Origin: Escherichia phage vB_EcoM_F1
Sequence record: NC_054912.1
DNA: 64,000 nucleotides
Strand: one strand, 5' to 3'
The notes under the pieces: model-generated
What the model was told of the DNA's origin: nothing
What the model saw: only the letters and a program-made list of their open reading frames with translations
Databases searched by the model: none
Translations under genes and position numbers: made by a program
Shown here: positions 47,706 through 49,907 of the stretch, one piece after another
How the letters are laid out: each line of letters begins with the position of its first letter
How positions within the stretch are numbered: position 1 is the first letter of the stretch

Positions 47706-48283
47706 TTATATACTGATTCCGTAAGGGTTGTTACTTCATCTATTTTATACCAATGGGTTTCAACCATTTCACGCTTGCTTATATCATCAAGAAAACTTGC
47801 ATCTAATTGAACCGTTGAATTAACACGATGCCTTTTAACGATGCGAGAAACAACTACTTCATCCGCATAAGGTAACGCAGCATATAACAGAGCAGGCCCG
47901 CCAATTATACTTACTTTGGAATTCTGGTCAAGCATAGTCTCGAATGGCGCGTTAGGACTTGAAACTTGAATTTCGCCACCAGAAATGTAAGTTATATATT
48001 GCTCCCAAGTAATATAGAAATGTGCTAAATCGCCGTCTTTAGTTACAGGATAATCACGCGCAAGGTCACACACTACAATATGACTACGACCAGGAAGTAA
48101 TGTAGATAATGACTGGAACGTTTTAGCACCCATAATCATAATTGTACCTTCGGTACGAGCTTTAAAATTCTGGAGGTCCTTTTTAACTCGTCCCCATGGT
48201 AAACCATCACCTAAACCAAATGCTAATTCGTCAAAGCCTTCAACTGTTTTAGTTGGAGAATAAGCGAATACCAATTTAATCAT
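47702..48283 (-). CDS. frd: dihydrofolate reductase
   Basis: 193 aa, [30 protein letters not shown]... Confidence 0.93.
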
Positions 48284-48528
48284 TACGCAAAACCCCTTTC
48301 AATAAACCATTCAGTGGCTTTATTAGCATCAAAGAATAATTCTTCATACGTCTTTTCTTTGTTTTCAAAGACTGTCACACAAACACGTTGACATTCTCCA
48401 CAGTATTCTTCTGACATACTCAAAGCGTCAGAAAACATTTCATTAAATTCACTTAAATCAGGATTATGCAATGCGTTAAAAATTGCATAATCGAATTCAT
48501 CATTCATAAATTCAAATACAAAAATCAT
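48283..48528 (-). CDS. hypothetical protein (frd.1 position)
   Basis: 81-aa ORF, Cys pair CGEC. Confidence 0.55.
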
Positions 48529-48538
48529 ATTATTTTCC

Positions 48539-48781
48539 TTAAACAGACTTTTTCACAATTTTCCAATCAGCTTTAAACTGTTCAACGTCAGAATGGTAAA
48601 TCCAGAATCCTGCGCTTTCTCCGTCTTCATAAAGAGGGCATCCATCGCATTCATCTTCCCATCCCATATCACGTAAAAGATGTTCAGCTTTTTCAACAAG
48701 TTCAGAATCTTTACCGATGATATTAAAATACCATTTACCTTTAACTTCTGAATCTTTGATGCTTTGGCGTTGTAATCTCAT
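48539..48781 (-). CDS. hypothetical protein (frd.2 position)
   Basis: 80-aa ORF with SD AAGGAG downstream of an early promoter. Confidence 0.55.
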   Translation of the reverse strand: MRLQRQSIKDSEVKGKWYFNIIGKDSELVEKAEHLLRDMGWEDECDGCPLYEDGESAGFWIYHSDVEQFKADWKIVKKSV

Positions 48782-48806
48782 TTTATTCTCCTTAGTTGAT
48801 AGGGTA

Positions 48807-48835
48807 ATAGTATCACACTACTACCCTGATGTAAA
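48807..48835 (-). promoter_or_regulatory. sigma70-type early promoter
   Basis: minus strand GTTTACA-N17-TACTAT, enclosed by inverted repeat AGGGTA/TACCCT. Confidence 0.5.
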
Positions 48836-48838
48836 CAA

Positions 48839-49099
48839 TTATTTTTGAATTTTATCGAGCCACTTACCAAGCTTAATCATTTCTTTAGTAGCCTTTTCCA
48901 TACTTCTGAACTTAACCAATAGAGGATAGGTATCAACACCCATAACTAAACTGGTTACAAGACTGTGTTCACCCACAAGCCATAACGAATACGTTTGAAT
49001 ATCGAGCCCGTAATTTCTGTCTTTATGGACCCGTACACCCATCACTTCAAATTTCTCACTAGCTTTTTCTACCGCATCCAGGAAATCATCTTTAGTCAT
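48839..49099 (-). CDS. hypothetical protein
   Basis: start chosen at ATG 49099 with SD AAGG; the track ORF begins at 49141 and overlaps the upstream ORF. Confidence 0.45.
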   Translation of the reverse strand: MTKDDFLDAVEKASEKFEVMGVRVHKDRNYGLDIQTYSLWLVGEHSLVTSLVMGVDTYPLLVKFRSMEKATKEMIKLGKWLDKIQK

Positions 49100-49100
49100 A

Positions 49101-49487
49101 TTAGGCCTTAAAAGTTTTTCGCAAAAGTTCAATGATTTCATCTACATTGTTTTCGTCAACAATGCAGTGAATTTTTGTTACGCCAGAAACTATACCTTCA
49201 TTAGCGGATTGAGGCTTTTCTAAAGTTACCTCAGTAAAGTATTTGAATTCTTCAGAGTAAATCTCAAAATACGTCTCAAGTGGGCCACCCGCCATGTATT
49301 CAGTGCCATCTTCCATAGTTACACGTACCACACATTCACCAGCACAATCATCACTTTCCATTTCATCTACAACAAAACTAGGTCCGTGCTTCTCTATTAA
49401 ATTTAGCATCATTACATTGCAACGACACTCGTTAGCAAAGTCATTTTTAAATAAAGGGTTAATGATATAAGTTTTTCCAACTTCCAT
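49101..49487 (-). CDS. hypothetical protein
   Basis: 128-aa acidic ORF with SD GAGGA. Confidence 0.5.
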   Translation of the reverse strand: MEVGKTYIINPLFKNDFANECRCNVMMLNLIEKHGPSFVVDEMESDDCAGECVVRVTMEDGTEYMAGGPLETYFEIYSEEFKYFTEVTLEKPQSANEGIVSGVTKIHCIVDENNVDEIIELLRKTFKA

Positions 49488-49533
49488 TTTGATTTCCTCA
49501 TTTTAACGGGGCTATCAAATAGCCCCTTGATAA

Positions 49534-49761
49534 TTATTGTTCAATCAGTCCCATGTAAAATTCTGCGTCTTCAGAATCCATGCCATCGCAATATTCATTA
49601 GCCATAAAGCGGGTAAGGTCTTCAAGAGGACCTTCAATAACGATTTGAATACTCCAAAACTTAGAATCTTGCACGCTTGTGATACTAAGTTCAGGATAAC
49701 GATTACGAATAATCTCTTCAATATATTCAAAATCAACGATGTCAATATCAACTTTAGCCAT
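49534..49761 (-). CDS. hypothetical small protein
   Basis: 75 aa from ATG 49761 (MAKVDIDIV...) with SD AAAGAGGAAA; the track ORF begins further upstream at 49887. Confidence 0.5.
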
Positions 49762-49857
49762 ATTATTTTCCTCTTTAATCATCAGCAGTATTGCCGATAG
49801 TTGTATAGTACCATGGAAGGACAAGGATGTAAACCGTTTTGTGAAAAAAATTTTTGA

Positions 49858-49886
49858 AATAAAAAAGGGGACCTCTAGGGTCCCCA
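49858..49886 (-). terminator. terminator after gene 32
   Basis: GGGGACC hairpin followed by TTTTTT on the minus strand, 20 nt past the gene 32 stop. Confidence 0.7.
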
Positions 49887-49907
49887 ATTAATTAGTAATA
49901 TAATCTA

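Follow-up and report, generated by a model that had tools for sequence, protein, structure and literature searches.

Between gene 32 and the dihydrofolate reductase (DHFR) gene frd, Escherichia phage vB_EcoM_F1 (NC_054912.1) carries five short open reading frames (ORFs) where phage T4 has three, which raises the question of which arrangement is the older one and what such an island of small genes might do. The interval analysed covers positions 48283-49887 in a 64-kb window of this genome, the window being the whole stretch of DNA under study. It represents a version, common in Tequatrovirus, of the segment from gene 32 to frd in the T4-type hyperplastic (variable, non-essential) region. Our overall account, to which we assign a probability of about 0.7, is that this common version is expressed from composite promoter and stem-loop (PeSL) cassettes, that T4 has contracted at the locus, and that the products are small, early binding proteins. 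Public records and published work on T4 hyperplastic regions already contain this sequence, its five genes and this type of regulatory cassette.

The five ORFs do not overlap one another, and all are encoded by the minus strand, flanked by gene 32 (49908-50816) and the downstream context gene frd (47702-48283, minus strand, 193 amino acids (aa)). In minus-strand order they are frd.3 (49534-49761, 75 aa, isoelectric point (pI) 4.05), an FN/RB51-type allele of frd.2 (49101-49487, 128 aa), an 86-aa gene designated ORF C (48839-49099, with its ATG at 49099, pI 7.95), the DUF5417 gene frd.1 (48539-48781, 80 aa) and an 81-aa gene designated ORF A (48283-48528, pI 4.05). The initial annotation had listed five short ORFs of 81, 80, about 86, 128 and 75 aa between frd and the gene 32 terminator, and all were found with these sizes. 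Each ORF is preceded by a Shine-Dalgarno (SD) sequence and matches a PHROG family with E <= 2e-34, and four of the five proteins are acidic (pI 4.05-4.94). From 48200 to 49950 the DNA is 100% identical to Escherichia phage vB_EcoM_FN (MZ170041.1, genus Tequatrovirus), in whose annotation all five ORFs are hypothetical proteins.

At this locus T4 (NC_000866, T4p240-242) has only frd.1 (80 aa), frd.2 (128 aa) and frd.3 (75 aa), in agreement with the initial annotation, and its cluster shares the position between frd and gene 32, the strand and the order seen here. Frd.3 is 100% identical to its T4 counterpart and matches Pfam PF05798 (Phage_FRD3) with 135.6 bits against a threshold of 28.1 (E = 8e-40), while Frd.1 is 98.8% identical and matches PF17438 (DUF5417) with 114.2 bits against a threshold of 23.9. 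The 128-aa and 86-aa ORFs had been singled out as the likeliest additions to the T4 set. This is correct for the 86-aa ORF, which is absent from T4; the 128-aa ORF is frd.2 itself, and the other extra gene is the 81-aa ORF A. One-to-one T4 orthologues therefore exist for three of the five ORFs, since ORF A and ORF C have no T4 counterpart.

The identification of the 128-aa ORF as frd.2, and not as an addition, follows from its match to PF03197 (FRD2; residues 27-127, 116.2 bits against a cut-off of 29, E = 1.1e-33) together with its orthology to the T4 gene; it also falls in phrog_622 (E = 1e-38) and combines the conserved C-terminus of the family with the locus position between frd.3 and frd.1. 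Its identity to T4 Frd.2 is 44.6% overall, which is very unevenly distributed: the N-terminal ~100 aa represent a different N-domain allele of ~30% identity, whereas the last 28 residues are identical. At the DNA level, blastn aligns the first codons and the C-terminal end (49108-49190, 98.8% identity) with T4 and finds no similarity in the middle 280 bp, and the difference from T4 is thus a mosaic. The recombination breakpoint coincides with the domain linker. Among Tequatrovirus records the N-domain falls into several discrete allele classes of roughly 30-66% identity to each other, and the C-terminus is nearly invariant among the tequatroviruses compared. N-domains at least 90% identical to the FN/RB51 type occur in 84 records and those at least 90% identical to the T4 type in 151, and a class at ~65% identity to FN occurs in 126. 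Such a polymorphic N-domain on a near-invariant C-terminus provides natural allele swaps for functional study. T4 Frd.2 has been grouped with GoF and MotB.1 as a protein with a predicted five-stranded, LSm/SH3-like N-terminal barrel (PMC12152347, Kim et al. 2025). The 128-aa protein has the same length and the same layout of an N-domain followed by a short C-terminal domain, although its allele is only ~30% identical to the modelled T4 N-domain and the likeness is known from sequence profiles.

ORF A has no Pfam family and belongs to phrog_3183, a family of unknown function. It was detected by tblastn in 449 phage records, nearly all of them from T4-like phages, RB3 among them, and its ratio of nonsynonymous to synonymous substitution rates (dN/dS) is 0.03-0.10 in comparisons with three tequatroviruses. 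Its stop codon overlaps the start of frd in a TAATG sequence. The homologue in Gaprivervirus VR20 (gp187) has 75 aa at 38.7% identity and overlaps frd by 4 nt in its annotated coordinates, and the family member in Mosigvirus phi25-307 has 82 aa at 29.5% identity, a Foldseek template modelling (TM) score of 0.81 and an 8-nt overlap with frd, so that genes of the ORF A family adjoin and overlap the frd start in all three genera. Apart from T-even relatives and a single subfamily of the VR20 type, the only match in an exhaustive HMMER search of 1.84 billion representatives was a spurious one to a Kazal repeat; an additional homologue search contributed 3 more sequences. Structure prediction gives a confident RbcS-like alpha/beta model, the best structural neighbours of which are Rubisco small-subunit-like (SSUL) domains, with a moderate match to a simple fold. 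The sequence identity to the RbcS/SSUL fold is 12% and neither context nor function is shared; the predicted likeness is probably a fold convergence of a simple two-layer sandwich. A fold search of BFVD returned only uncharacterised T4-like phage proteins. Residues 43-46 of ORF A form a C-G-E-C motif, which is accompanied by a third cysteine and is not conserved in the VR20 or phi25-307 homologues.

ORF C likewise has no Pfam family and belongs to phrog_4423, again of unknown function; tblastn detected it in 347 phage records. It starts 1 nt past the frd.2 stop codon. A longer, 100-aa reading from 49141 was rejected because it overlaps the 128-aa ORF and because 19 of 19 aligned homologues start at the MTKD/MNKD position of the 86-aa form. 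Its dN/dS is 0.036 against Dhakavirus JS98 and 0.065 against VR20. The proteins of vB_EcoM_F1/FN and JS98 are 96.5% identical, above the values for Frd.1 (75%) and Frd.3 (71%) in the same comparison, but the DNA is only ~86% identical (dS 0.54), which argues for strong constraint and not for recent transfer; a very recent passage of ORF C from a Dhakavirus to a Tequatrovirus was rejected on the same values. ORF A and ORF C are both under purifying selection and are real genes. Outside the T4-like phages, homologues of ORF C occur in Phapecoctavirus (59-61% identity), in Drexlerviridae of E. coli and Klebsiella (42-56%) and in Certrevirus (34%), and a tblastn search with frd.2 variants found no frd.2-like gene near them in four non-T4 loci. 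The frd.1 gene is more widespread, being found in 1412 records including Klebsiella siphoviruses, and its product carries a C-D-G-C motif at residues 45-48 that is kept in JS98, VR20 and phi25-307. The Klebsiella phage vB_Kpn_K62PH164C2, a T1-like siphovirus, encodes homologues of both frd.1 (41-51% identity; locus 12-257, minus strand) and ORF C (47-49%; 1501-1761, plus strand), which lie 1.2 kb apart in divergent orientation, and frd.1 and ORF C thus co-occur also in a phage family unrelated to the T-even phages.

The direction of change at the locus can be read from its distribution. The whole locus is matched by 648 phage records, among which there are variants with three ORFs (T4), four (e11/2, with ORF A, frd.1, frd.2 and frd.3), five (vB_EcoM_F1) and six (Geo and ECO4). 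The sixth ORF of Geo and ECO4 (locus 626-985, minus strand) encodes 119 aa between ORF A and frd.1, and blastp (E <= 1e-3) detects no similarity between it and the 113-aa ORF that JS98 and VR20 have at the corresponding site. A synteny comparison across T4-like genomes, as proposed in the initial annotation, showed that the extra genes hold equivalent positions outside the genus, ORF A and ORF C in VR20, ORF C in JS98 and an ORF A-family gene in phi25-307. The VR20 locus comprises frd.2-like genes, frd.3, ORF C immediately behind a copy of frd.2, frd.1, the 113-aa ORF and the ORF A homologue; in JS98, frd.2 is present as two paralogues, and ORF C begins 1 nt beyond the second of them. The counterparts of ORF A and ORF C in vB_EcoM_FN, RB3, RB51, JS98 (orf232) and VR20 (gp184) are the same genes at 89-100% identity and are annotated as hypothetical.

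T4 itself retains traces of the fuller arrangement. Its homology to vB_EcoM_F1 extends ~20 nt into each end of ORF A (blastn), it keeps 21 nt where the ORF A region of vB_EcoM_F1 has 202 nt, and the remnant still starts with an ATG at the equivalent position. In addition, T4 and e11/2 share a frd.2 3' end, CTTTCAAAAAGTAGTTTACA, that is closer to the 3' end of ORF C (TTCAAAAATAATTGTTTACA) than to that of vB_EcoM_F1 frd.2 (CTTTTAAGGCCTAA), and the T4 frd.2 3' end therefore looks like a fusion with the ORF C 3' end. The distribution of the genes, the remnants of ORF A in T4, the synteny across genera and the hybrid-looking frd.2 3' end together indicate an old origin of the fuller arrangement and a contraction in T4. 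T4 would accordingly be a derivative in which ORF A was deleted internally and ORF C was lost, and the five-gene content would be the older one, shared by several Tevenvirinae genera. The initial annotation had described the cluster as expanded, which reverses this direction: T4 keeps the ends of ORF A, and ORF A and ORF C occur in 449 and 347 records, respectively. T4 thus represents a reduced state at this locus and not the reference state, and comparisons made against it are misleading here.

The regulatory elements of the island belong to a type known from T4-like phages. PeSL cassettes are composites of an early promoter and a stem-loop attenuator that are repeated through hyperplastic regions (PMC2839356, Arbiol et al. 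2010; PMC4122927, Comeau et al. 2014) and have been implicated in the insertion, deletion and exchange of ORFs (PMC2839356, PMC4122927). The early-promoter consensus of T4 and PST is TTTACW-N17-TAYWAT (PMC4122927), which occurs five times in the window against 0.22 occurrences expected by chance, and two of the five matches lie on the coding strand of this locus. One of these is the putative frd.3 promoter (49805-49833, minus strand; GTTTACA-N17-TACTAT, with TGG before the -10 box and an A/T-rich upstream stretch), which comes after an A/T-rich stretch and the intrinsic terminator stem-loop of gene 32 (49867-49885, minus strand). This terminator, recognised by a terminator scan and by folding, has the form GGGGACC-CTAGA-GGTCCCC followed by a T-run, with a folding free energy (dG) of -14.3; in the PeSL cassette of frd.3 it is at the same time the stem-loop on the upstream side. 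The other is the frd.1 promoter, which the initial annotation had placed correctly at 48807-48835 (minus strand). It has a pair of hexamers identical to that of frd.3 (GTTTACA-N17-TACTAT), with TG before the -10 box, and together with a 12-bp stem-loop that covers the -10 box (48801-48827, dG -15.2, z = -2.97) it forms the frd.1 cassette (48801-48835, minus strand).

A hairpin that had been noted at about 49506-49526 was located between frd.3 and frd.2 at 49508-49526 (minus strand). It consists of an 8-bp stem with a 3-nt loop (GGGGCUAU-UUG-AUAGCCCC; dG -13.6, z = -2.9) and has no U-tract. In an alignment of 11 intergenic cassettes from FN, T4, JS98, VR20 and phi25-307, the intergenic spaces share a ~60-bp consensus, GTTTACA..TAT..ATGATAnTATAGnCCTATCAAC..ATGAGGAAAATAAAATG, which ends in GAGGAAAATAAAATG, with the SD sequence and start codon of the next gene at the 3' end of the cassette, and most intact cassettes have a stem-loop at the same place. 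The hairpin corresponds in this alignment to the 3' half of an intact cassette and is therefore read as a degraded PeSL that has retained the stem-loop, SD sequence and ATG and lost the promoter boxes; it may attenuate transcription or stabilise RNA. Its stem also occurs in T4, closed by another loop, and VR20 has a promoter-like version at the equivalent site. T4 also shares both early promoters.

The locus thus has the components described for PeSL cassettes, namely the A/T-rich stretch, the promoter, a G-rich/C-rich stem-loop before or over the -10 box, the SD sequence and the ATG, and the association with ORF indels is also seen, since one end of the indel that comprises ORF C coincides with the -35 box. 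It differs in that ORF C has a cassette on one side only and in that the 49508-49526 hairpin is a stem-loop remnant only. Furthermore, mini-circle, promoter and terminator activities were assayed for the published cassettes (PMC2839356), whereas those at this locus are recognised from sequence alone; at that level, the promoters and the hairpin are identified as PeSL cassettes of T4-type hyperplastic regions. An Rfam scan of 46000-51500 returned only the td group I intron. The T4 frd.3 transcript is among the abundant NAD-capped RNAs (bioRxiv 10.1101/2024.04.04.588121), which argues for its own +1A start at the frd.3 promoter.

Taken together, two T4 early promoters of sigma-70 type, the first behind the terminator of gene 32 and the second ahead of frd.1, appear to drive the island. 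ORF C would be translationally coupled to frd.2 through the 1-nt gap, and ORF A to frd through the TAATG overlap. Given the early promoters and the coupling of ORF A to frd, the island is likely to feed into the frd-td transcription unit of nucleotide metabolism. The description of the cluster as a variable early-gene island in the initial annotation agrees with these predicted signals and with the observed variation. Indel junctions lie at or beside the repeated cassettes, in keeping with the published model in which PeSL cassettes recombine with each other.

With regard to function, scans of all five proteins against Pfam, NCBIfam and PADLOC returned only the three expected frd families, and PDB sequence searches (with a profile for ORF C) gave nothing below E = 0.001 except for a marginal match at the Frd.2 C-terminus. 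This match covers residues 85-122 (49101-49190, minus strand; GVTKIHCIVDENNVDEIIELLRK) and an ankyrin-repeat structure (1n11_A, E = 0.001), and no single stretch of it is significant alone. The fold search with ORF C gave no informative structural neighbour, no similarity in sequence or fold to characterised anti-defence inhibitors was found for the island proteins, and the literature on frd.1, frd.2, frd.3, DUF5417 and T-even accessory-gene screens gave no functional assignment. These results speak neither for nor against the host-takeover or anti-defence roles that the initial annotation had suggested. As no match bears a function, the most defensible mechanism is a generic one, that of early, non-catalytic binding proteins. 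The products seem to be small, single-domain and mostly acidic proteins without catalytic signatures, which most likely bind macromolecules of the host or the phage early in infection and act stoichiometrically. The target of Frd.2 is probably RNA or protein, contacted through the predicted LSm/SH3-like N-terminal barrel, ORF A would serve as a compact alpha/beta module of RbcS-like type for binding that is produced along with DHFR, and all of the proteins are presumably dispensable in laboratory hosts; T4 frd.2 amber mutants show normal plating (PMC12152347). The two ORFs missing from T4 are now correctly identified, and for ORF A a confident fold model and a conserved coupling to DHFR are available.

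Several points weigh against this account. The promoter and terminator activities are deduced from sequence, none of the five proteins has a demonstrated function, and the structure model of ORF C is only moderate (predicted local distance difference test score, pLDDT, of 70). ORF C lacks an upstream cassette, and therefore a simple excision between two cassettes fails to explain its loss, which is explained equally well by microhomology. In addition, a CRISPRi-ART screen scored T4 frd.2 as a fitness gene, the only one of unknown function in that screen, which conflicts with full dispensability (PMC11879866); polar effects on frd and td are a possible source of this score.

Among the rival explanations, it is improbable that the additional genes (ORF A and ORF C, or the 128-aa and 86-aa ORFs) are recent, moron-like insertions into a three-gene ancestor resembling T4. 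The horizontal mobility of ORF C, evident from its homologues in Phapecoctavirus, Drexlerviridae and Certrevirus, would suit such a gain, as would the clean, cassette-sized difference ending at the -35 box. However, the 128-aa ORF is frd.2, both ends of ORF A persist in T4, genes of its family adjoin frd in VR20 and phi25-307, and ORF C follows a frd.2 copy at the same 1-nt gap in JS98 and VR20; the divergence of ORF C between FN and JS98 also points to long vertical co-residence. That some of the five are chance open frames in AT-rich intergenic DNA is a suggestion that can be set aside almost entirely: in its favour are the small size of the ORFs and the lack of a Pfam family for ORF A and ORF C, but all five match PHROG families, dN/dS is well below 1, homologues are conserved at 30-60% identity in other genera and families, the structure model of ORF A is confident, and every ORF has an SD sequence in addition to the translational coupling.

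Two further alternatives concern function and depart from the generic binding role that we prefer. According to one of these, which is conceivable and has perhaps one chance in a few of being right, the island serves counter-defence or host range, at least one of ORF A, ORF C and the Frd.2 N-domain alleles inhibiting host immunity or another phage, and the variation in presence and in alleles would mirror an arms race. The early expression signals, the small acidic proteins with presence/absence polymorphism, the discrete Frd.2 N-domain classes on a nearly invariant C-terminus, and the occurrence of ORF C and frd.1 in unrelated virulent enterobacterial phages are in line with this idea. Nevertheless, few proteins of the island are as conserved as ORF C (dN/dS 0.04), a degree of conservation atypical for a fast-evolving inhibitor, and a search for the word 'frd' in two papers on T-even accessory genes and essentiality gave no match. 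The other alternative, that ORF A is a small partner or modulator of DHFR, of thymidylate synthase or of the dNTP-synthesising complex, seems unlikely; if true, ORF A would be an unrecognised DHFR or dNTP-synthesis partner that T4 has lost. It would account for the overlap of ORF A-family genes with the frd start in every one of the three genera, and the Rubisco small-subunit-like neighbours act by decorating a large enzyme. Yet the frd-td unit works in T4 and in the ~30% of matching records without ORF A, the structural match is moderate and concerns a simple fold, and the conserved adjacency may be mere synteny.

A smaller difference was observed upstream of frd.1. In T4, T6, AR1, ECO4 and ~200 phage records, an 84-bp segment is present downstream of the frd.1 promoter and ahead of the SD sequence of frd.1 (in T4 at about 4020-4090 of the locus and about 146,019-146,089 of the record), which is missing from the window at about 48795; in T4 and ECO4 the insert falls between the start region and the SD sequence. 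The segment encodes a hydrophobic micro-ORF of 22 codons (MFAPYIMAAVMLVCLYLLIKAC) with its own GGAG SD sequence, and the micro-ORF is unannotated in 11 of the 11 annotated records listed.

The surroundings of the island differ as well. In T4 it is flanked by two homing endonucleases, whereas vB_EcoM_F1 has no segG in the space between genes 32 and 59 (50817-50915), where T4 has SegG, and its I-TevI is reduced to a remnant. The td group I intron lies at 46759-47166 (minus strand; Rfam RF00028, 40.5 bits, under the gathering score of 50), and the I-TevI gene within it is represented by a remnant of only 55 codons (ORF 46858-47025). Between two repeats encoding RHFK, 190 codons have been lost in frame, and the two pieces that match T4 overlap by 16 nt.

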